Shown here in pieces: positions 5,705-14,398 of a stretch of 64,000 bases of DNA. The translations under genes and the position numbers were made by a program. The notes beneath the pieces are model-generated. The model was not told the DNA's origin, ran no database searches, and saw only the letters and a list, made by a program, of their open reading frames with translations. Position 1 is the first letter of the stretch. Each line of letters starts with the position of its first letter. The stretch covers positions 97-64,096 of the forward strand of contig JAERTI010000020.1 in the NCBI GenBank assembly GCA_016844925.1. Direction: 5' to 3'. This DNA comes from Candidatus Uhrbacteria bacterium. Its GTDB lineage: Bacteria; Patescibacteriota; Patescibacteriia; UBA9934; GWF2-40-263.

Positions 5705-5780
5705 AGCTGAAGTTAAAAAAGCTGCCCACGGGCAGCTTTTTTGTTTGCAAGAAAAAATCCCTGCCAGAAGGGCAGGGGGT

Positions 5781-6509
5781 CTACTCGCTGAACCAGCGCT
5801 CGATGCGTTCGAGCGAAGGTTGGACGCGGTGGAAGCTCTCGCTGGCGATCAGACTGTGATCACCTGCGACACGAACGACCTTCACGCGCTCGTCGGGGTA
5901 GGTGGCGTGGGCGACGAAGAAGTCCTTCTCCGGCACGATGGCCATCACCTCGCAGGGCAGCGGAGGCATCCACAGGCGCAGCGGAGGCATGGAGATCTGC
6001 CTCACGGCGCCACAGGGCTCCGGGTGCAGTGCGCGCTTGATCTGCTCACGCAGCGTGGCACGGCGATCGGGGTTGGTGCCACCCAGGAGCATGGCATCGA
6101 TCTGTTCGTCGGTGTCCAGCTCCAGGTCCTTGCCCAGCAGCACGCGCCACAGAGGGGCGAAGGCGATCATCAGGCCATGGATGAGCACGGCGATGCGGAT
6201 GCCACGCCGTTCCATGCCACCGAAGAGGGCGACCTTCTTGAAGAGCCCCGGTTGCTTGGCCGCAACGCCGCGAATGACCTGCGCCCCCATGCTGAACCCG
6301 ATGGCATAGCAGCCGTTGGGAAGCAGGGAGAGGTCGATGTGGGCGTTGTTGACGTAGCCCTTCAGGCTCGTGCCCTTGTAGTGAAGGATCACCACATTCC
6401 AGTCGGAGAAGAAGGCGATCACGTGGCGGAACCACCAGCGGACGTACTTCTTGTTCTTGTTTCCCCAGGCGCCGGGGAACAGCACTACGGTGCGCTTGGC
6501 GTCTCCCAT
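5781..6509 (-). CDS. Alpha/beta hydrolase, paralog of 13039..13959; GC-rich
   Basis: GxSxG elbow YAIGFSMG matches YAIGFSYGG in the 13039 ORF. RBS TTAAGGAGG lies before the ATG at 6509. Confidence 0.55.
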   Translation of the reverse strand: MGDAKRTVVLFPGAWGNKNKKYVRWWFRHVIAFFSDWNVVILHYKGTSLKGYVNNAHIDLSLLPNGCYAIGFSMGAQVIRGVAAKQPGLFKKVALFGGMERRGIRIAVLIHGLMIAFAPLWRVLLGKDLELDTDEQIDAMLLGGTNPDRRATLREQIKRALHPEPCGAVRQISMPPLRLWMPPLPCEVMAIVPEKDFFVAHATYPDERVKVVRVAGDHSLIASESFHRVQPSLERIERWFSE

Positions 6510-6541
6510 CAGGGCCTCCTTAAGGTGAGGGGTGACTGGGG

Positions 6542-6570
6542 AGATTAGGAGAGCCGTGGGGTTTTGTCAA
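6542..6570 (-). promoter_or_regulatory. Sigma70-like promoter for the hydrolase at 5781..6509 (TTGACA, 17 nt, TAATCT)
   Basis: Plus-strand tgtcaa at 6565-6570 and agatta at 6542-6547. Shares the 14-mer ATTGACAAAACCCC with 277-290. Confidence 0.45.
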
Positions 6571-6598
6571 TAAAAAGGACCCAACGTGTTGTCGGGTC
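6571..6598 (-). terminator. Intrinsic terminator after island gene 1
   Basis: GC-rich hairpin (GACCCGACAACACGTTGGGTCC on the minus strand) followed by TTTTTA. Confidence 0.4.
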
Positions 6599-6609
6599 AG
6601 TGTTCACGG

Positions 6610-8019
6610 CTACTGCTCGTGAATGATTCGACTGATGCGCGCCATGACCTTGTGGGCCAACGGGAAGCGGTGTTCATCTGGAATCTTGACGTGGTATCGA
6701 CCGCCCTGAGCACGGACGAGTCTTTTGCTCACCATGTCCTGGAGTGTCGCTGCGAAGACTCGTCGTGGAGAGGAGACGTCAGGAAGGAACTGGCGACACA
6801 TGCGCCACAGGCGGTTTTCGTTGAGGTGAGGACTCGCAGCGAAGGTTATGAGCCTGTTTCCTTCACGAAGAAACCCGCAGAGCAGGATGGCCCGCGCGAA
6901 GGGGATGTTCAGGTCAGGGAACAGGTCCTCGAGTTCCAGCTTCTCCATCAGTTGCGGGAAGTCGGTGGCCCCGGTGGCCTGTTCGCGTTTCCTGTAGTTT
7001 GGGTGGTGACGCTTCAGACCGGTGAACTTCGTTCGTTCGGTTTTTGGTTCCGGGAGTGAGAGACGTTGTCTCTCAAGAGTGTGTCGCCGCTGCTCTTCAT
7101 GGAGCATCTTCCAGGCATCGTAATCGTCTTTTGTTCCGCCCAGGGCGAAGAAGTCGACCAGGGACAGGTCGTTTTTGAACGGCTCCCACGCGTTACACAC
7201 CGCAACAAGCTGGTCGAATGTGTCCATTCTGTAGACGATGGATGCGTCCGAGCAGATGGCCTTGAGGTGACGCGCGTTGAGGTATCCGTTGACGATGTAT
7301 CGAAGCAGGTTATCAACCACCTGGATGTCGGTAGCGTCTGCGAGCTGAGCGATGCGGCCGCAGCTTACCCGTCTGCGGTTCGCCTCTTTGATCATCATCC
7401 ACAACTTTGGGATGCCGACTTTCACACCGTGAGGTGAGGTGTATGCCGCGTATGGTGTGGGGACGTTCCAGCTTTGAAAAAGCTTCGTGACCAGCTGCAG
7501 CTGTGCACTGTTTCCCAGAGGGGTGCCAATGCTTGGCTGCTCATGCCCCGGTCTCCAACCGTAGAGTTCGGCCATGAACCTGAACATGTGTCCGCAGCGT
7601 TTCCATATAGGCATCTTCATCAGGTGCCTGATTGCTGGAACGGCTTCGCCCCAGTTCAGCATGGCTGTTGCCGCCTGGACGAATTCCAGGGTTTCGACCC
7701 ATGAGAGCTGACCGAACCCCCAGTGCTCCATGATGGCGAGTGTGTTGAGAGCGTGGTCAGCTCGTCCTCCACACGCGTCGACCAGTGCCCCGAGGAATTG
7801 TTCGGTATTGGGCAGGCACACAGCGCCCACGCCGGTGGAGAGAGTGATGATCCTTTCCAGTGCCTGATGAGCCTCCTTTCTTAGGCTCGGCTTCATGTTG
7901 GATTGTTCCACGAAACTTCTGGTCACGGCGACGACAGTCTCCGCTGGCAGTGAGGTTTCGTAGAAGTACGGACTCAGGTCAAGGCGCGGTGCCTCGACCG
8001 GTGATTCGGTGGTCGACAT
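6610..8019 (-). CDS. Island paralog 1 of an unrecognised four-member family (C-terminal winged-helix-like module, KRHH motif)
   Basis: Likely start is the ATG at 8019 (MSTTESP); the ORF track extends to 8085 through the leader hairpin. Central motif ALGGTKDDYDAWKML, basic motif GLKRHHPNY, C-terminus LQDMVSKRLVRAQGGRYHVKI. Shares its C-terminal architecture with 8141, 9760 and 11400. Confidence 0.6.
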   Translation of the reverse strand: MSTTESPVEAPRLDLSPYFYETSLPAETVVAVTRSFVEQSNMKPSLRKEAHQALERIITLSTGVGAVCLPNTEQFLGALVDACGGRADHALNTLAIMEHWGFGQLSWVETLEFVQAATAMLNWGEAVPAIRHLMKMPIWKRCGHMFRFMAELYGWRPGHEQPSIGTPLGNSAQLQLVTKLFQSWNVPTPYAAYTSPHGVKVGIPKLWMMIKEANRRRVSCGRIAQLADATDIQVVDNLLRYIVNGYLNARHLKAICSDASIVYRMDTFDQLVAVCNAWEPFKNDLSLVDFFALGGTKDDYDAWKMLHEEQRRHTLERQRLSLPEPKTERTKFTGLKRHHPNYRKREQATGATDFPQLMEKLELEDLFPDLNIPFARAILLCGFLREGNRLITFAASPHLNENRLWRMCRQFLPDVSSPRRVFAATLQDMVSKRLVRAQGGRYHVKIPDEHRFPLAHKVMARISRIIHEQ

Positions 8020-8020
8020 A

Positions 8021-8101
8021 GTGTCGATCCTTTCTCTTCGCCGCACGCCCCGGAAGGGGGGCGAAGGTATCGACACTAGCGGCATGAAGGATTCATGTCA
8101 A
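8021..8101 (-). promoter_or_regulatory. Type-B 5' region of paralog 1: TTGACA, 17 nt, TAGTGT promoter overlapping a conserved leader hairpin that contains the SD
   Basis: Plus-strand tgtcaa at 8096-8101 and acacta at 8073-8078. Inverted repeat GTGTCGAT(8021-8028)...ATCGACAC(8069-8076) with inner stem CTTCGCC/GGCGAAG. The 3' arm carries AAAGGA and ends 2 nt before the ATG. It is nearly identical to 11286..11356. Confidence 0.5.
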
Positions 8102-8102
8102 T

Positions 8103-8134
8103 AAAAAAACCCCGACGTTGTGGCCGGGAAGGGG
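8103..8134 (-). terminator. Intrinsic terminator after paralog 2
   Basis: GC-rich hairpin CCCCTTCCCGGCCACAACGTCGGGG followed by T7 on the minus strand. Confidence 0.45.
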
Positions 8135-8140
8135 CGTCTC

Positions 8141-9571
8141 TCACGAGGCGTGCGTTGCCGTGATGAGCGTTTCTATGTGGGTAATCTGCTGCCGGGCTTG
8201 GGTGTAGCGACCAGAGGGCTTCTTGAGCCTCAGGCGCTTCCCCTCACGTGTGAGCAGGTGCTCTGTCTCGAGCTGGCCGAGGAACTTCTTGAGCTCCCGT
8301 CGGCTTCCAAAGACAGTTCTGCACTGTTTCCAGAGCTTCTTCTCGTCCCGTCCTTCACAGTCGGTGAGCGACCGTGGGAGACGATCTCCGTGTCGGAGGA
8401 ATCCCTCAACGATGATGTGTCGGAGCCGGTCTTCACCCAGCGCTGCAAACGTCGACGTGACGTTCAGCTTGCGCCGCAGGGCGTCGAAGTCGATCTGCTT
8501 GGGCTTGGGAGGCCTGTAGCTGTGGTGGTGACGCTTGTTGCCCGTTGCCTGAGGGGTGGGTTCCTCCGACAAACGCGTGCATGGCTGGGGTGATGGCTTT
8601 GAGGCCATTGAACGCTCCAGCTCTTCTTGCTCAAGCAGCTGCAGGAATTCCCAGTCATCCGCGGTTCCGCCAGCCTCGTGGAAAGCGGACCAGTCTTTGG
8701 GGCGACCAGCATTGTGCCACTCACTGAGAAAGTCTGGGAACGCTTCGGGGCCAATTTTCTCGAGCAAGTCCTTTTCGCCAAGGGTCCGTCTCAGGACCTT
8801 GTCTTCACGTAGGTGACTAGGGGTAGATTCAGCGATCGCCATGATCTCCAGAAACGTCGTGTCCTGCAACAGGCGGACGATCTGGTCCAGCGAGTAGTCA
8901 CGTGTCAGCAGGTGTAGTTGCTTCCATACGAGAAAGAGAGGGGCATTCACTCCCGAGTTCTTGTAGGTCAGCTCCAAGTCCTCAAGGGCTTGGTCGCCAA
9001 GCTCCTGTGCGTAGTCTTCGATCTGCTGCCTCGCTCCCATGGCGATCTTGAGCGTGGCGATGAACAGCGAAACGCTTGCGATCGGTTTTGGGTGCTGAGG
9101 GTACGTCGCGAGACGAGCACGCTCCTGATCTGAGGAGAAGTTGGCCAACTGGTGCGCCACCTGAACGAGTTCAAAGGCACGAAGTGAGGCCTCGGGCATC
9201 TTTTCAAGGACGCGCTCATTGGTTGTGCTGAGGTAATCCGGAGAGAGCTTGACCCATAGGCCGAGATCGCAGAATTCTCTGTAGAGCCGTACGTACATCT
9301 TTGGGTGGCTGTAGGTGAATCCGTACAGCGCAACACCTCCAATGACTTCGAGCATCCTCGTAAGCCTGAGCTCGGTCTTGTCGAGGTCTTCGAGCACGGC
9401 GTTGAGTGTTGTCAGGTACCCGTAGCGGCCAATGGGGCCACGTCGCTTGACCATCCGCTCGAGCATGGCTCTGGCCGCCTTGGCGATTTCACCTTGCAGC
9501 TTGAGTGTGTCCATGTAGGCCCGGATGGTTCCGGGGACGTGTTCGAAGTCTTTATAGTGCTCCAGTTCCAT
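8141..9571 (-). CDS. Island paralog 2 (same unrecognised family)
   Basis: Motifs SEWHNAGRPKDWSAFHEAGGTADDW and GNKRHHHSYRPPKPK, C-terminus LGQLETEHLLTREGKRLRLKK. The start is uncertain: ATG at 9571 (MELEHYK) or TTG at 9601. No strong SD at either. Confidence 0.55.
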   Translation of the reverse strand: MELEHYKDFEHVPGTIRAYMDTLKLQGEIAKAARAMLERMVKRRGPIGRYGYLTTLNAVLEDLDKTELRLTRMLEVIGGVALYGFTYSHPKMYVRLYREFCDLGLWVKLSPDYLSTTNERVLEKMPEASLRAFELVQVAHQLANFSSDQERARLATYPQHPKPIASVSLFIATLKIAMGARQQIEDYAQELGDQALEDLELTYKNSGVNAPLFLVWKQLHLLTRDYSLDQIVRLLQDTTFLEIMAIAESTPSHLREDKVLRRTLGEKDLLEKIGPEAFPDFLSEWHNAGRPKDWSAFHEAGGTADDWEFLQLLEQEELERSMASKPSPQPCTRLSEEPTPQATGNKRHHHSYRPPKPKQIDFDALRRKLNVTSTFAALGEDRLRHIIVEGFLRHGDRLPRSLTDCEGRDEKKLWKQCRTVFGSRRELKKFLGQLETEHLLTREGKRLRLKKPSGRYTQARQQITHIETLITATHAS

Positions 9572-9695
9572 CAGGTAGAAACCTTGGGAGCCTTTACGCA
9601 AACCACGCTCTGCGGGGTTGGCTACGTGCAGGTGCTTAACGTACTTGAGTTTCCGACCCAGAGGGGCCTCCTTTACTCCTGGGTAGGAGAGAATG

Positions 9696-9724
9696 AGAAT
9701 AGGGCCTTAGGGGGTTATCGTCAA
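9696..9724 (-). promoter_or_regulatory. Type-A promoter for paralog 2 (TTGACG, 17 nt, TATTCT)
   Basis: Plus-strand cgtcaa at 9719-9724 and agaata at 9696-9701. Homologous to the module at 12976..13040. Confidence 0.5.
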
Positions 9725-9730
9725 GGGAAT

Positions 9731-9761
9731 GAAAAAGAAAAAAGAGACTCCGGAGAGTCTC
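9731..9761 (-). terminator. Intrinsic terminator after paralog 3; it overlaps the stop codon
   Basis: Perfect hairpin GAGACTC-TCCG-GAGTCTC at 9744-9761, followed on the minus strand by TTTTTTCTTTTTC. Confidence 0.55.
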
Positions 9762-11277
9762 AAGTTGCGTACTTCGCCATCAGGCCACGGAGCTGCGTGA
9801 GGAGCTGGTGAGCCTTGGGAAAGCGTGTATTTGGGAGTGCTAGGGAGTAGTTGCCGCGCTTGAAGGTGACTAGATGTGCCTCCAGGAGTGGCCGGAGTTC
9901 TCGAGTGAACTGCTTACGACTACTTGCTTCAACGTGTCCCTTCACCTGTCTCCAGAGCTTCTTGCCATCTCTGGAAGGAAGCTTTGTCCAGTCGGTTGTG
10001 AGGCGGTCACCGTCACGGAGCAAGCCGTACACGAGTACGACTCGCGTCAGTGCTTCGTCCAGATCAGGAAAGTGCGCATGGACGTTGAGCTCGGAGCAGA
10101 GGGCCCCGAAGTCTACGTCTGTGGACTTTTCTGCTGGGATGAAGTTCGCGTGATGCCGTTTTCGACCGGTGGGGGTCTGGTTTGGTCGGACAGGGGTCGC
10201 TAGTCCTCCTGTGGGCTTTGTGGTTGAGGAGGGTTTTTGCACAGACCGTTGTTGGTCAAGGTGCCTCTCCCAGTCCTGCGCCCGCCCGCCCGCTTCCCAG
10301 AATTCCATGAGGTCACATGGCTTTTCGGCCTTTTCCCATTCTGCGAGCAGTGAACGCATGATCTGGTCGTCCCAGTAAGCGTCTACCAGAAAGCCGGGCT
10401 CGCGGAAGCAAAAGATCAAGGCATCGGGGGTGAGGATCTCGCGTTCAATGAGGGAGAGGGTCATGAAGCAGAACTCAGCTGAGTGCTCTTTCAGCATCTT
10501 GTGAGTAAGACGCTGGGAGAACCCTCTTTGTTTCGCAAGAGCGAAGCGTTCCCAGAGGCGAGTTGTTGTGACCACTTCTTGGTCAAACTTGATCTTCAGG
10601 TCAGGTCCCAACGTTACGTCGAGAGAGGTGATGAGCCTAATGGCCGACAAGAGTGCTTCAAAATCTTGTGGCTCAGGTAGGTTGTGCGGCTCTCTTGTCC
10701 ATCCTTCCTCTTCCGTGTAGTTGCACAGAAGGGCAGAGCTAGCAAGAAGTGCGACGGATTTCGGGTTGAAGTCCGCATCTCCTATATCGAATGCATCAGG
10801 GTGCGCTAAGGCAATTTGATACATACGTTTTGCAAAAGCCGCGAGCTCATGAGAGCTTTTGAATCTCAGGTCCGCCATCGACAGCTTGTGAACGACGCTG
10901 GCGACGATGTTGGGAGTTTCTCCTAAGCAGTCTGTGAGCCGGTCGATCAAGCTGTTGACCGTTCCAAGGAAGCCGTGCTGGTTTTCCGGGCCGTCACCAA
11001 GAGTCATTCTGGTGAAGGCATCGACGACCACCTTCTTCTTGTCTTCAGGGAGCTCAGCATCGCGGAGCCAGTTACGCCACGTTGGAGCGACGAACCGTGG
11101 GTCGAAACCGCAGGATTTCCAGCGTTTGTCTTTCGGCTCCATGTAAATGGTTACGCCTCTAGACAGTCGTTCCTTGCCAAGGATTTCAGCAAGTTCTTCG
11201 GAGGAAGAGATCTTGAGAGAACGGATGTGTGAGAAGCGTTTTTTTGAGTAACGCCGCTTTTTCTGCTTGGTGGGCAT
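9760..11277 (-). CDS. Island paralog 3 (same unrecognised family)
   Basis: Likely start is the ATG at 11277 (MPTKQKK); the ORF track extends to 11331 through the leader element. Motifs MEFWEAGGRAQDWERHL and TGRKRHHANF, C-terminus LRPLLEAHLVTFKRGNYSLAL. Confidence 0.6.
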   Translation of the reverse strand: MPTKQKKRRYSKKRFSHIRSLKISSSEELAEILGKERLSRGVTIYMEPKDKRWKSCGFDPRFVAPTWRNWLRDAELPEDKKKVVVDAFTRMTLGDGPENQHGFLGTVNSLIDRLTDCLGETPNIVASVVHKLSMADLRFKSSHELAAFAKRMYQIALAHPDAFDIGDADFNPKSVALLASSALLCNYTEEEGWTREPHNLPEPQDFEALLSAIRLITSLDVTLGPDLKIKFDQEVVTTTRLWERFALAKQRGFSQRLTHKMLKEHSAEFCFMTLSLIEREILTPDALIFCFREPGFLVDAYWDDQIMRSLLAEWEKAEKPCDLMEFWEAGGRAQDWERHLDQQRSVQKPSSTTKPTGGLATPVRPNQTPTGRKRHHANFIPAEKSTDVDFGALCSELNVHAHFPDLDEALTRVVLVYGLLRDGDRLTTDWTKLPSRDGKKLWRQVKGHVEASSRKQFTRELRPLLEAHLVTFKRGNYSLALPNTRFPKAHQLLTQLRGLMAKYAT

Positions 11278-11285
11278 GTAAGGAG

Positions 11286-11356
11286 CCTTTCTCTTCGCCA
11301 GCTTCCCGGAGGGAGGCGAAGGTATCGACACTATCGAGCTCCTTGATTCATGTCAA
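11286..11356 (-). promoter_or_regulatory. Type-B 5' region of paralog 3: TTGACA, 17 nt, TAGTGT promoter plus a conserved leader element
   Basis: Plus-strand tgtcaa at 11351-11356 and acacta at 11328-11333. Leader arms GTGTCGATACCTTCGCC (5') and GGCGAAGAGAAAGG (3') are identical to those of paralog 1. Confidence 0.5.
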
Positions 11357-11382
11357 CAAAAAACTCCGACGCATGGTCGGAG
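11357..11382 (-). terminator. Intrinsic terminator after paralog 4
   Basis: Hairpin CTCCGAC-CATGC-GTCGGAG followed by TTTTTTG on the minus strand. Confidence 0.5.
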
Positions 11383-11399
11383 GAGGGAGTCTGGAGGAC

Positions 11400-12947
11400 T
11401 CAGGTATTTGCACAGAGCTTCGTAAGCGCTGTACGCACGTTGAGTGCTCCGTGCGTTGAGTGAGAGTTCGTAGCGATTTGGTACTTACCACCACTCTGCC
11501 GGACGAGTCGGATGGACTCGAGCTGGCGCAACGCGCTGTTGATGTCACGGTCCTGGACCCTACCCAGCTGCCTGACTCGGCTGCGGAGCTTACTGGCCTT
11601 GATCTGCGGCCAGCGGGCCGGCTGCATGAGACGGTCGCCAGAGCGCATGAGGGTCAGCAGGATGGCTGAGACAAGATCTGCATCGTGGTCCGGGAGGTGC
11701 TTGAGCACAATCTCGCGGACCAAGTTGCGGAGCCTGTCCCAATCGGTCTGCGGCTTCTCCTTCGGTGGCTCGAAGTTTCGATGCCGGCGCTTGTTTCCGG
11801 TGGATCGCTGGGGCTTGGGAGGCTTGGCTGCCTGCACCCGAGGGATCCGCGCCCGTTCTCGTCGTCGAGCCTCAAGGAGCCGTCTCTTCTCGGCTTGCGA
11901 GCTCAGGTGCGCTTGCCAGCTCACGCTGGTGCCTCCCTGGCGCAGAAACGCACGGAAGTCATCAGGTCGTCCGGCTTCACTCCAGTGCTCCAGCAGGGCA
12001 ACGACCTCGGTAGGGACGTCCATCTTGATCTCACGCGCGTGGCGCGCAAGGGTTCGGACCTGCTCCTGGTCGAGTGCACCGGTGCTGTACTGGGCGATGA
12101 CATAGAGAACGACCTTCATGGTGCTGTGTTGCACCAGGGAACGGACATCTGTCACGGCGAACCCGTGGTCCGTCAGGATGGTCAGCAGGGACCAGATGCG
12201 TCCAAGGGAAACGGTGTCTGCACCGGCTTCATCGGACAGCGTGTCGTCGGGGCTGAGCACGCGCTCGTCCTGGATGAGAAGATGCACGGCCAAGACGATC
12301 AGTTCAGGGTCGTGCGCCGACAGTACCACCGGAAGGTCTTCTACACCACATGCCCGCAGGTGCTTGATGATGTGGACTAACGCTGTGGTGATGACTTCTG
12401 TGGCATTGATGTCGATCCTGGATTCAGGAATCTCGTTGCGAAGCTGTAGTGGCTTGATGGCCTTGCGGAGCCCTGTGTAGAGACGCTCGTAGTCACCATA
12501 GTGTTCGTACAAGTAGCCGGTACGTTCCATGGCAGCCAGCGAGGTCATCCCCAGTGTGGGGTGCCCGCGGAAGAGTTTGGTAAAGCGCTGGATGAGCCGG
12601 TCGCACCGCCCAAGGAGGGTGGTGCCAGGATGACCCTTCCTGGCAAGGCGCAGCAAGGCGTTGACGCCAAACGTCCTGTACCCAGGGTTGAATTGAGTCA
12701 AATCCGTGAGGAAGTTCCTGATGATCCCGCCCACACAGTTCGGGTGGTTGTAGAGCTTGCGGATCGTCTCACTCGGAGGGAGGACAACAAGCCTTCGCAT
12801 CTCCTTACGAAATTCTTCGTCGGGATCGTCGATCTCACGAGCATCCTTCTCCCAGAAGGTGGGGGTCTCGCTCATGGTCACGAGCTCAGGAATGTCCTGG
12901 ACATCGATGCTCAAGTGCACCAACTTCAGACGGCCAACCTTGGCCAT
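11400..12947 (-). CDS. Island paralog 4 (same unrecognised family)
   Basis: Likely start is the ATG at 12947 (MAKVGRLKL) with SD AAGGAG. Motifs LEHWSEAGRPDDFRAFLRQGGTSVSW and TGNKRRHRNFEPPKEK, C-terminus LRQLESIRLVRQSGGKYQIA. Confidence 0.6.
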   Translation of the reverse strand: MAKVGRLKLVHLSIDVQDIPELVTMSETPTFWEKDAREIDDPDEEFRKEMRRLVVLPPSETIRKLYNHPNCVGGIIRNFLTDLTQFNPGYRTFGVNALLRLARKGHPGTTLLGRCDRLIQRFTKLFRGHPTLGMTSLAAMERTGYLYEHYGDYERLYTGLRKAIKPLQLRNEIPESRIDINATEVITTALVHIIKHLRACGVEDLPVVLSAHDPELIVLAVHLLIQDERVLSPDDTLSDEAGADTVSLGRIWSLLTILTDHGFAVTDVRSLVQHSTMKVVLYVIAQYSTGALDQEQVRTLARHAREIKMDVPTEVVALLEHWSEAGRPDDFRAFLRQGGTSVSWQAHLSSQAEKRRLLEARRRERARIPRVQAAKPPKPQRSTGNKRRHRNFEPPKEKPQTDWDRLRNLVREIVLKHLPDHDADLVSAILLTLMRSGDRLMQPARWPQIKASKLRSRVRQLGRVQDRDINSALRQLESIRLVRQSGGKYQIATNSHSTHGALNVRTALTKLCANT

Positions 12948-12975
12948 GATTGCTCCTTGGAAAGGGCAGATGATG

Positions 12976-13004
12976 AGGTTAGCGACGATATGGAGGCGCG
13001 TCAA
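12976..13004 (-). promoter_or_regulatory. Type-A promoter for paralog 4 (TTGACG, 17 nt, TAACCT)
   Basis: Plus-strand cgtcaa at 12999-13004 and aggtta at 12976-12981. The surrounding roughly 45 bp are homologous to 9696..9761. Confidence 0.45.
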
Positions 13005-13010
13005 GGGAGT

Positions 13011-13040
13011 AGGAAAAGAAAAAGAGAGACGGAGTCTCTC
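13011..13040 (-). terminator. Intrinsic terminator after the hydrolase at 13039..13959
   Basis: Hairpin GAGAGAC-TCC-GTCTCTC at 13024-13040 followed by TTTTTCTTTTCC on the minus strand. Confidence 0.5.
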
Positions 13041-13959
13041 AGGGGGTGGAGGATTTGTCTTTGAGGCTGCGGCGGATGCGCAGGCCCAGGACGATCCAGA
13101 CCAGGGGGTTCATGGTGGCCTTGTGGCCGATCTGGGGGAGGGTATGGCTCCACCAGGTGGGGAGCGTGGGCTGCCAGCGCCACAGAGACAGAACGATAAG
13201 AGCCGGCCAAATGACATAGCGCTGCCATCTGGAAGGAACGACCGAATCTGCTGGGCGCGGAGGGCGCGTGTCGCTCTTGTGGGCGACAAGGTCTACGAAC
13301 GAGGCGTTGTGATGAACGAAGACACCGTGGGCTTCGAGGTGCTCGATGGCGCGGTGTGTCTGTGGGAGGTTCTCCGAGTCTGGTTCCATCTCACGTGCCC
13401 CACTGGCCTTGATCACTCGCGCGAGCGCGGAGCCGCGCAGGGGAGTGTTCACGGTGTAGAGCGTGCGGATGTCTCGATCCGGATAGGCCTTGACCAGGTC
13501 CACCAGCTGCCAGATCAAATCGAACCCGCCGTAGCTGAAGCCGATGGCGTACAGCGGACGTTGTCCGGTGTGCTTGCGGAACCACTCACGGTTGAGCGAG
13601 ACGATTTCCGAAGACGGGACAACGTTGCCCGCAAGCGGGGTCTGGATGAACAGGATCCGGTAGCCGAATACTTTGTTCAGGAATACGCCCATGGGCCAGA
13701 CGGTGTAGGGGGTCGTATTGAGACCCACCGCGATGGCGACGTCTGCACGAGCACTCTCGTGATTGAGGATGTAAGGGAAGTGTCCCAGTCGCCACTTTGC
13801 ATACGTACAGATCACCGCCTCCAGCAGGAGGACGGGCAGGTGGGTGATGACGAGTACCGGACCACGGATGGGTCCGAGGATTTCGAATCCTTCGCGCACA
13901 CGGCGCTTCCACTCGCTGAGGAAGGACGTGCCTTCCACATCGATCGAATCTTCTTTCAT
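13039..13959 (-). CDS. Alpha/beta hydrolase with a C-terminal hydrophobic/TM segment; paralog of 5781..6509
   Basis: YAIGFSYGG nucleophile elbow. Likely start is the ATG at 13959 (MKEDSIDV) with SD GGAGGGG. The C-terminal segment is W-rich and hydrophobic. Confidence 0.55.
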   Translation of the reverse strand: MKEDSIDVEGTSFLSEWKRRVREGFEILGPIRGPVLVITHLPVLLLEAVICTYAKWRLGHFPYILNHESARADVAIAVGLNTTPYTVWPMGVFLNKVFGYRILFIQTPLAGNVVPSSEIVSLNREWFRKHTGQRPLYAIGFSYGGFDLIWQLVDLVKAYPDRDIRTLYTVNTPLRGSALARVIKASGAREMEPDSENLPQTHRAIEHLEAHGVFVHHNASFVDLVAHKSDTRPPRPADSVVPSRWQRYVIWPALIVLSLWRWQPTLPTWWSHTLPQIGHKATMNPLVWIVLGLRIRRSLKDKSSTP

Positions 13960-14041
13960 GGCCCCTCCGCGGGTGGATGCTGAGCGTACGATGTCGATGG
14001 TGTCTTGGTCAAGGAGATGGGCTCGTGTACGATAGAAGGGT

Positions 14042-14398
14042 ATGTCTGTAAGTGCTTTTATCCTCGTGGGACTCCACACCTTTTTGGCCTGGGTGCTCAT
14101 CGAAGCGTTTGTAAACCTCTGTCACCGGTTTAGGCGACCGACGTATATCTTCGCCCATTATTCTGTCATCGTGCTGACGTTCGGTGTGCTCTTTTCTGTG
14201 TACTTTAGATTTTTCTCGGAGAAAGCGTCTGTGTTTTGGGTGACGATTTCCGCGCTAGCATTCCTTCTCTTTTACGAACTTGTCGTCTTTCGTTATCTGT
14301 ATAGCGGTGAGCGATGGTTTCTTAACTGGGCCGATTGGATCTTGCCGGTATTTCTGGCCCTGACCACCGTTTACGCTGCAGGAGTTTTTCTAGGTTGA
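14042..14398 (+). CDS. Small integral membrane protein, paralog B of 2524..2883
   Basis: See 2524..2883. 118 aa, same length and helix pattern. Confidence 0.6.
   Translation: MSVSAFILVGLHTFLAWVLIEAFVNLCHRFRRPTYIFAHYSVIVLTFGVLFSVYFRFFSEKASVFWVTISALAFLLFYELVVFRYLYSGERWFLNWADWILPVFLALTTVYAAGVFLG

Follow-up and report, generated by a model that had tools for sequence, protein, structure and literature searches.

How does a row of paralogous genes, whose products have diverged far from one another, come to carry regulatory DNA of two kinds in strict alternation? This question is raised by a six-gene island in a stretch of 64,000 nucleotides (nt) from contig JAERTI010000020.1 of a Candidatus Uhrbacteria bacterium, here called the window (64 kb), to which all positions refer. 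The six genes lie head to tail on the minus strand (5781..14100) in the order hyd353, P4, P3, P2, P1, hyd242, and the G+C content of the block (5745..14035 / 5781..14100) is 57-61%, compared to 47-52% in its flanks. A preliminary description of this DNA had assigned the intergenic regions ahead of the paralogs P1-P4 to two types of terminator-promoter module, here class A (ahead of P1 and P3) and class B (ahead of P2 and P4), and had explained their alternation by the duplication of a two-gene unit. Based on the analysis reported here, we consider it probable (roughly 0.6) that gain, loss or replacement of promoter-to-terminator gene units at a variable locus produced their interleaving. In the following, L001, L007, L018 and the like denote related loci recovered from public assemblies, and P0003, P0004 and the like denote family proteins.

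The motifs quoted in the preliminary description are all found at their coordinates on the minus strand, and the pairing of P1 with P3 and of P2 with P4 is borne out by alignment of the four intergenic regions. Global alignment yields 93/108 identical positions (86%) for the class A pair and 65/84 (77%) for the class B pair, while no alignment was obtained between class A and class B regions. Local alignment of the 120 nt upstream of the genes gives scores of 52 for the class A pair and 28 for the class B pair, compared to 8.0 ± 1.4 (maximum 13.5) for shuffled sequences. Among the direct repeats of the window, only a tRNA pair is longer than the class A pair, whose 19-mer TAGTGTCGATACCTTCGCC occurs twice in the 64 kb, with 0.00 occurrences expected from shuffles. 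The encoded proteins show no such pairing, since all six pairwise identities fall between 24% and 29%. The regulatory DNA is thus more conserved than the coding DNA, as had been claimed, both within the array (86% and 77% for the module pairs versus 24-29% for the proteins) and in comparison with a close relative, where the P4 module is 95-96% identical but the P4 coding region 78%.

A word-indexed homologue search returned one protein per query, and the protein family of the paralogs was revealed by an exhaustive HMMER scan, with 43 members among 1.84 billion cluster representatives. For 36 of these, E lies below 1e-10, and the family, though rare, is therefore real. In the window its profile finds these four ORFs only. 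In an unrooted neighbour-joining tree with bootstrap, P3 groups with P0004-7 and P0013 (bootstrap 95) and P4 with P0008, P0017, P0018 and P0020 (bootstrap 84). P2 is placed loosely with P0014, P0019, P0024 and P0025 (bootstrap 22) and has its best matches in other genomes, and P1 stands alone on a long branch, with no close orthologue found and at best 25-33% identity to the P0010/P0012/P0016 group. Neither P1 and P3 nor P2 and P4 form a sister pair; P3, for example, is 32-45% identical to its orthologues elsewhere and only 24% identical to P1. For P4-clade orthologues the identity to P4 is 37%, whereas comparison of the window with L015 or L007 gives 85-91% for MurA, the Na/H exchanger and S12, so that the family must evolve very fast.

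These relationships bear directly on the proposed duplication, according to which an ancestral unit of one class B gene and one class A gene was copied in tandem to give P4 plus P3 and P2 plus P1, with coding regions subsequently diverging faster than the modules. The strict B-A-B-A order is what such an event would leave behind, B-then-A order is also seen in L007 and L010, and the family does evolve fast, its orthologues being far less alike than housekeeping proteins. A very old version of the event would moreover fit the adjacent position of the P4 and P2 clades in the unrooted tree. However, each paralog that has homologues has nearer ones in other genomes (P2, P3 and P4 are closer to proteins encoded there), and sister pairs are lacking. 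In L018, P3 and P1 are absent as separate units of ~1.6 kb, with P4 and P2 kept, instead of as half of a duplicated block. Lastly, alignment of the two class A copies with each other gives a score of 52, compared to <=20 when they are aligned with orthologues' upstream DNA, which is the opposite of what an old duplication followed by uniform constraint should produce. The duplication of a two-gene unit thus finds no support in the tree or in the gene content of relatives, and we regard it as very unlikely.

Comparison with close relatives provides the most direct view of how the array varies. The loci L018-L023, represented by at least 14 contigs from several samples, share 89-91% DNA identity with the window across 17 kb, and their array consists of hyd-P4-P2-hyd only. 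P3 is absent from L001 and L018-L023, P1 is absent from L018-L023, and L001 has the same P4-P2 junction as L018-L023. Copy number thus varies between related genomes, as the preliminary description had suggested checking: a relative carries P4 and P2 without the class A genes, P3 and P1 being exactly the two variable genes. One of the two window-specific segments, 11354..9697, comprises the class A promoter, P3, the P3 terminator and the -35 element and spacer of the following class B promoter. The other, 8136..6572, comprises the P2 terminator, the class A promoter, P1 and the P1 terminator and ends at ATTGACA. Each variable unit measures ~1.6 kb, with ends inside terminator/promoter junctions. 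Ahead of hyd242 lies a third, partial copy of the class A front (repeat family D6), made up of a terminator and TTTTTATTGACA-17-TAATCT (6598..6542), which from ATTGACA on is 95% identical to L018. The coding region and leader of P2 are 89-92% identical between the window and L001/L018 (92% at the nucleotide level versus L001), while its promoter spacer is unrelated between the haplotypes (5/17 by direct count) and its -10 element reads TAGATT in L001/L018 versus TATTCT in the window. The P3 terminator together with the next TTGACG promoter is the positional orthologue of the junction that follows the P3-clade gene of L015 (score 42), where this promoter, judged by position, drives hyd242. Across the relatives, the site adjoining MurA holds 1-4 family members. 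From these comparisons we infer that the window haplotype is likely a P4-P2 (B-B) backbone with one class A unit after each gene.

In the reading that we favor, each gene would be its own transcription unit. The upstream gene closes with a hairpin and T-tract that resemble an intrinsic terminator, a promoter-like site of the sigma-70 type follows this tract directly or within ~13 nt, and behind it lies a short leader with a Shine-Dalgarno sequence. Whole promoter-to-terminator units of a winged-helix protein family would be gained, lost or replaced, with breakpoints in the terminator/promoter junctions, and the B-A-B-A order would not be the trace of a duplicated two-gene block. Function as promoter and leader elements would account for the persistence of the conserved blocks, and the extra identity of the class A copies may stem from copying, gene conversion or co-evolution with a shared trans-acting factor.

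The layout of the island is consistent with such separate transcription units, as a hairpin with a T-tract follows each of the six genes (13040, 11382, 9761, 8129, 6598 and 5777, minus strand) and a promoter-like site stands ahead. The hairpins are GC-rich, with 7-8 pairs and loops of 3-6 nt, as is expected of intrinsic terminators, and homologous stems differ by compensatory changes (e.g. GAGAGAC/GTCTCTC versus GAGACTC/GAGTCTC). At the hyd353 end, the stop codon of the gene overlaps the class B terminator. All five junctions within the island contain TTGACA (class A) or TTGACG (class B) followed by a 17-nt spacer, in agreement with the -35 element and spacing of sigma-70 promoters, and the -10 element of P2, TATTCT, matches TATAAT at >=4/6 positions; the P2 promoter is the sole one called by a scan. 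TTGACA-type sites and intrinsic terminators are also present elsewhere in the window. The roles of promoter, terminator and leader are those that we infer from these sequence features.

Within class A the order is terminator, T6-7, (A/G)TTGACATGAATC, 11 poorly matching bases, TAGTGTCGATACCTTCGCC, a variable loop, GGCGAAGAGAAAGG, 8-9 bases and ATG. Conservation between the two copies is block-wise, with 18/20, 19/19 and 14/14 identical positions in the blocks, 5/11 in the spacer between them and 10/17 in the loop. The similarity extends into a leader hairpin CTTCGCC...GGCGAAG and the AGAAAGG behind it, the 3' arm of the predicted hairpin adjoining the Shine-Dalgarno sequence. In class B the similarity is focused on the terminator stem, on the T/C tract through TCCCTTGACG (22/25) and on the -10 element plus CAT (7/9), the CAT opening a leader that is pyrimidine-rich at its start. 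Both classes share the core TTGAC[AG]-17-TAnnnTC and differ in the tract upstream of the -35 element and in the leader: in class A the -35 element directly follows the T-tract, in class B a T/C tract of ~13 nt lies in between. Within the window, TTTTNTTGACA is found at three island sites only. The preliminary description had concluded that the four genes are wired to two promoter classes. Two classes of module or leader do exist, but because the core is common to both there is no sign of two promoter specificities.

The P1 module (8017..8101, minus strand) additionally holds two inverted repeats that the P3 module does not have. The first, CATGAA-TCC-TTCATG, overlaps the -35 element and the spacer; the second, TAGTGTCGAT...ATCGACACTA, spans the entire leader to the ATG, and its predicted fold partly encloses the ribosome-binding site.

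As an alternative to duplication, the preliminary description had named purifying selection on two distinct regulatory inputs. In its pure form this explanation holds that classes A and B are two ancient inputs that have remained unchanged, without any copying, since the paralogs split. It comes nearer to the evidence, for perfectly conserved blocks alternate with poorly matching spacers, and class-like features are found upstream of family genes in L007, L009, L010, L013, L015 and L016. L009, L010 and L013 have P3- and P1-clade genes preceded by TTTATTGACA-17-TAG..T and then a hairpin adjoining (A)GAGAAAGG, and a class-A-like leader hairpin stands behind other promoter fronts in L015 and L016. 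The block TAWYCTCATCNTCTGCYCTTT, which follows the -10 element, recurs upstream of P4-clade and membrane-anchored members, and the block behind the -10 element of class B module 1 is found in L007, L013 and L010. Across ~170 kb of the window and its relatives, every occurrence of TTT[AG]TTGAC[AT] lies ahead of a family gene or hyd242, and in five genomes TTGACN-17-TAWYYTC precedes most family genes. The P4 module of class B is 87/91 identical to L001 and L018 and has thus changed more slowly (4/91 substitutions) than synonymous sites, the synonymous divergence (dS) of the flanking genes being 0.19-0.72.

What pure purifying selection leaves unexplained is the relationship of the class A copies to each other, with a score of 52, compared to <=20 for either copy and upstream regions from other genomes. 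Orthologues should have kept the 19/19 and 14/14 blocks but do not (L009, for example, has TAGGATCCAGACCTTCACC), and the stems of class-A-like leaders in other genomes are partly different. The classes are also mixed, in that the promoter of the P3-clade gene in L015 is B-like and its leader A-like, and across genomes P2-clade genes bear either class. Uniform ancient constraint would not predict the within-genome excess of class A identity, and pure purifying selection is therefore unlikely as a full explanation. Simple recent conversion of the entire module, on the other hand, is disfavored by the block-wise conservation. Taken together, the block-wise pattern and the within-genome excess point to functional constraint combined with a within-genome cause, for which module copying, short-tract or gene conversion and co-evolution with a shared trans-factor are candidates.

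With respect to its function, the class A leader hairpin is probably a 5' stabilizer or a translation-control element. The inner stems CCCC/GGGG (P1) and TCCC/GGGA (P3) differ by one compensatory change with pairing kept, and in most class-A-like leaders a hairpin adjoins the Shine-Dalgarno sequence. A search of Rfam gave no match in 6400..13200 on either strand at E <= 5, its only matches in the window being three tRNAs, and a riboswitch or known structured RNA was rejected on this ground. 5'-terminal stem-loops that stabilize mRNA are present in the ompA leader of Escherichia coli and in the aprE and ermC leaders of Bacillus subtilis. The class A leader resembles these in its predicted stable hairpin a few nt from the presumed 5' end and directly upstream of the ribosome-binding site; unlike them, it is conserved in sequence rather than covarying.

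The paralogs themselves constitute an uncharacterised, fast-evolving family of winged-helix proteins. The AlphaFold (AF2) model of P3 (mean predicted local distance difference test score, pLDDT, 87.5) shows an all-helical N-terminal domain of ~300 residues and a disordered basic linker with TGxKRHH, and the C-terminus of the family is a winged helix that conforms to the winged helix-turn-helix (wHTH) fold. No match was found for the linker and the N-terminal domain, the latter searched in PDB and BFVD. A PDB sequence profile search likewise gave nothing significant (top match E = 0.99), and Pfam, PHROGs, NCBIfam and PADLOC returned nothing over threshold for the six island proteins; accordingly, membership in a curated wHTH family has no Pfam, NCBIfam, PHROG or PADLOC match behind it, and a phage-defence reading was rejected for want of a PADLOC match. 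The family thus differs from winged-helix proteins of the MarR/ArsR type in lacking any sequence-level family match and in its unmatched N-terminal domain and linker. Most family proteins have no signal peptide, while some members have membrane anchors.

It is conceivable that a regulator, possibly the winged-helix paralogs themselves, binds the hairpin and palindrome blocks as DNA or RNA, and that blocks and regulator co-evolve within each genome. Yet each palindrome can also be explained as a terminator or a leader hairpin, winged-helix folds have many binding partners, and no protein is tied to any module, so that we rate this as distinctly unlikely. In a bolder version, the paralogs would read the A and B junctions as cis-sites, forming with them a self-contained circuit, and the junctions would at the same time serve as homology anchors for unit swapping; this is likewise distinctly unlikely. 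If true, it would explain why the class A copies are near-identical here and yet unlike those of orthologues, and uncultured marine bacteria would here possess a hypervariable locus for a new protein family.

Intergenic repeats of ~100 nt with hairpins that surround gene-sized cassettes, together with units that vary in presence, might also suggest small mobile or recombination elements with promoter and terminator activity, such as miniature inverted-repeat transposable elements (MITEs), Correia-like repeats or integron attC-like sites. In L007, a P3-clade gene even lies between its own direct repeats of ~100 nt (11566..11678 and 13239..13347, 82-89% identical), which contain a terminator and, as a second and perfect hairpin, AAAGTCGGAAGCTAAGCTTCCGACTTT, along with TTGAC[AG]; repetition of junction modules hence occurs there too, although with a different sequence. 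Against such elements stands the lack of any module copy outside the array in the 64-kb window. The 19-mer TAGTGTCGATACCTTCGCC has four single matches, in unrelated taxa, among 185,579 genomes (~4 expected by chance by our own estimate) and none in viral contigs. Neither terminal inverted repeats nor target duplications were seen, and the island encodes no integrase or transposase, with no match over threshold in Pfam, PHROG, NCBIfam or PADLOC. A MITE or Correia-like repeat was rejected in view of copies confined to the array and the missing inverted repeats and target duplication, and an integron cassette because no island gene matches a recombinase and each has its own promoter-like site. 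We consider a mobile-element origin hardly credible.

Several observations weigh against the interleaving of promoter-to-terminator units or limit how far it can be taken. The promoters and terminators of the island are consensus matches only, and the -10 elements TAGTGT, TAACCT and TAATCT agree with TATAAT at 3/6 positions (T1, A2, T6) and were not called by the scan. The fold z-scores of the leader hairpins are only -1.0 to -2.6, with one compensatory pair, and no consensus structure emerged when RNAalifold was applied to ten class-A-like leaders. In the 17-kb alignment of the window with L018, most intergenic regions show 94-100% identity, compared to 72-94% for third codon positions. Due to this high identity of most intergenic DNA, the conservation of modules between close relatives is not special to the array. 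Resolution is poor at the deep nodes of the tree, and the P1 branch is long, so that an ancient duplication of a B-A unit, though very unlikely, retains some probability. Simple recombination between the window junctions would not yield either of the L018 junctions, the differences from L018 may be two gains or two losses, and the four-gene haplotype is known from a single contig. As a side observation, lower intergenic identities with L018 are seen between hyd242 and the Na/H exchanger (87%) and between the Na/H exchanger and the acyltransferase (75%). The higher conservation of intergenic DNA than of third codon positions suggests dense functional non-coding DNA in a compact genome. The positions of all features are compiled in Table 1.

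Table 1. Features of the six-gene island in window coordinates, and a recurrent terminator of related loci in the coordinates of those loci. SD, Shine-Dalgarno sequence; aa, amino acids.
Feature	Position	Strand	Description
hyd353	13039..14100	-	353-aa alpha/beta-hydrolase-like ORF; first gene of the GC-rich island
Class B module 1 (hyd353 to P4)	12948..13040	-	terminator hairpin 13040..13024 GAGAGACTCCGTCTCTC, then T/C tract
Class B module 1, promoter-like site	-35 13004..12999; -10 12981..12976	-	TTGACG, 17-nt spacer, TAACCT
Class B module 1, leader		-	CAT + pyrimidine-rich, AAGGAG, ATG at 12947
Paralog P4	11400..12947	-	515 aa; ORF identical to P0003
Class A module 1 (P4 to P3)	11278..11399	-	terminator 11382..11364, T6
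Class A module 1, promoter-like site	-35 11356..11351; -10 11333..11328	-	TTGACA then TGAATC; 17-nt spacer; TAGTGT
Class A module 1, leader hairpin	11321..11293	-	CTTCGCC/GGCGAAG, inner stem TCCC/GGGA (predicted)
Class A module 1, SD	11292..11286	-	AGAAAGG; ATG at 11277
Paralog P3	9760..11277	-	505 aa counted from ATG
Class B module 2 (P3 to P2)	9662..9761	-	terminator 9761..9744 GAGACTCTCCGGAGTCTC, T/C tract
Class B module 2, promoter-like site	-35 9724..9719; -10 9701..9696	-	TTGACG, 17-nt spacer, TATTCT
Class B module 2, leader	SD 9673..9667	-	hairpin CTCCT/AGGAG, SD AAGGAGG, probable CTG start 9661
Paralog P2	8141..9661	-	506 aa if start is CTG 9661; first canonical start TTG 9601
Class A module 2 (P2 to P1)	8020..8140	-	terminator 8129..8110, T7
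Class A module 2, promoter-like site	-35 8101..8096; -10 8078..8073	-	TTGACA then TGAATC; 17-nt spacer; TAGTGT
Class A module 2, leader hairpin	8066..8036	-	CTTCGCC/GGCGAAG, inner stem CCCC/GGGG (predicted)
Class A module 2, SD	8035..8029	-	AGAAAGG; ATG at 8019
Paralog P1	6610..8019	-	469 aa
Partial class A front (P1 to hyd242)	6510..6609	-	terminator 6598..6578, CTTTTTA
Partial class A front, promoter-like site	-35 6570..6565; -10 6547..6542	-	TTGACA, 17-nt spacer, TAATCT
Partial class A front, leader		-	AAGGAGG, ATG at 6509
hyd242	5781..6509	-	242-aa alpha/beta-hydrolase-like; last island gene; terminator 5777..5759
GAGGTCC/GGACCTC terminator	L010 6685..6708, 11455..11478; L013 ~11480..11500; L016 ~7900, ~9540

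The start of P2 is probably the non-canonical CTG, 5 nt past AAAGGAGG, instead of the TTG. The N-terminal peptide LGRKLKYVKHLHV that it would add aligns with the N-termini of P4 and of L010_499, the latter having a TTG start at the equivalent position. Gene callers and assemblies differ at this point, with a product of 476 amino acids (aa) in one case and an upstream start in a 310-aa fragment in another. For P1, the listed representative of its 90% cluster, P0045 (55 aa, L024), is unrelated to it and a clustering artefact; P0045 lies on a 3.2-kb contig with small, tightly packed genes. Two metagenome scans, with the P3-clade alignment and P0006 as queries, returned no relatives. The northern Gulf of Mexico hypoxic zone is the origin of one source metagenome (JGI 3300003894).

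P4 differs from its counterpart in L001 with dS 0.72, non-synonymous divergence (dN) 0.19 and 72% aa identity, where adjacent genes have a dS of 0.19-0.27. This divergence next to a conserved upstream module (95-96%) suggests allelic replacement or an older allele.

As for the genes that border the paralogs, hyd353 has a weak match to Abhydrolase_1 only, under the Pfam cut-off, and is 67% identical to a 301-aa gene at the equivalent position in L007, while hyd242 is 58% identical to the L015 gene at the equivalent position. A mutual paralogy of hyd353 and hyd242 was rejected, as they show no detectable relationship. A predicted membrane protein of 118 aa (14042..14398, plus strand) is encoded divergently from the array; it adjoins the array in every relative at the site, with 59-67% identity, and has no family assignment. 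A recent foreign origin of the GC-rich island was likewise rejected, since the array occupies the same syntenic site in relatives and in most genomes such arrays exceed their flanks in G+C; the composition looks like an attribute of the genes themselves.

The relatives contain a second family locus (L010, L013, L016 and the JGI contig of P0006), the first member of which has N-terminal membrane helices (P0027, P0031, P0032). The next gene, of ~95-100 aa, has a TrpR-like helix-turn-helix match in L016 and in the P0006 contig and is a candidate regulator; in L013 another gene intervenes before the TrpR-like one (89 aa). A terminator stem GAGGTCC-loop-GGACCTC followed by TTTTT(T)ATT recurs at this second locus in three genomes.

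Among described systems, the lpl cluster of Staphylococcus aureus comes closest. There, divergent head-to-tail paralogs occupy a variable locus at which copy number and order differ between strains (Tsuru & Kobayashi 2008, PMC2568036). Intergenic regions of lpl are conserved and co-inherited with flanking segments, with recombination inferred from genome comparison; the recombination site is a conserved region within each ORF, and the unit consists of 3'-ORF, intergenic region and 5'-ORF (PMC2568036). It offers a precedent for tandem paralogs shuffled by recombination and linked by conserved junction units (PMC2568036). Unlike in lpl, the conserved DNA here is the terminator/promoter junction, the breakpoints lie in it, the junctions are of two classes and the proteins are unrelated to lipoproteins. 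Conserved 5' cassettes ahead of tandem paralogs with divergent coding regions are also a feature of phase-variable surface-protein families, e.g. vsp of Mycoplasma bovis. Unlike those families, the present locus shows no site-specific recombinase, invertible element or simple-sequence repeat, and most of its proteins have no signal peptide but a winged-helix domain. The junctions themselves are like any intrinsic terminator followed by a sigma-70 promoter, with a GC-rich hairpin, a T-tract and TTGAC[AG]-17-TAnnnT. They differ from the ordinary arrangement in that the class A T-tract meets the -35 element where an UP element would sit, that the -10 elements are weak (3-4/6 versus TATAAT) and that the junction sequence is reused at several genes.

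The modules are thus composed of ordinary building blocks, namely terminator, promoter and leader. What they offer would be a clean natural case of gene gain and loss in promoter-to-terminator units with breakpoints within regulatory junctions, in which alternating repeats that resemble a block duplication arose in another way. The class A pair illustrates that regulatory modules can be closer between distant paralogs in one genome than between orthologues. Moreover, the analysis draws attention to a rare, fast-evolving family that combines a winged helix with an unmatched N-terminal domain and forms tandem arrays of varying content, located at two syntenic loci. Should the paralogs turn out to regulate the modules that they carry, the array would provide a compact system for studying the co-evolution of regulators and their sites.

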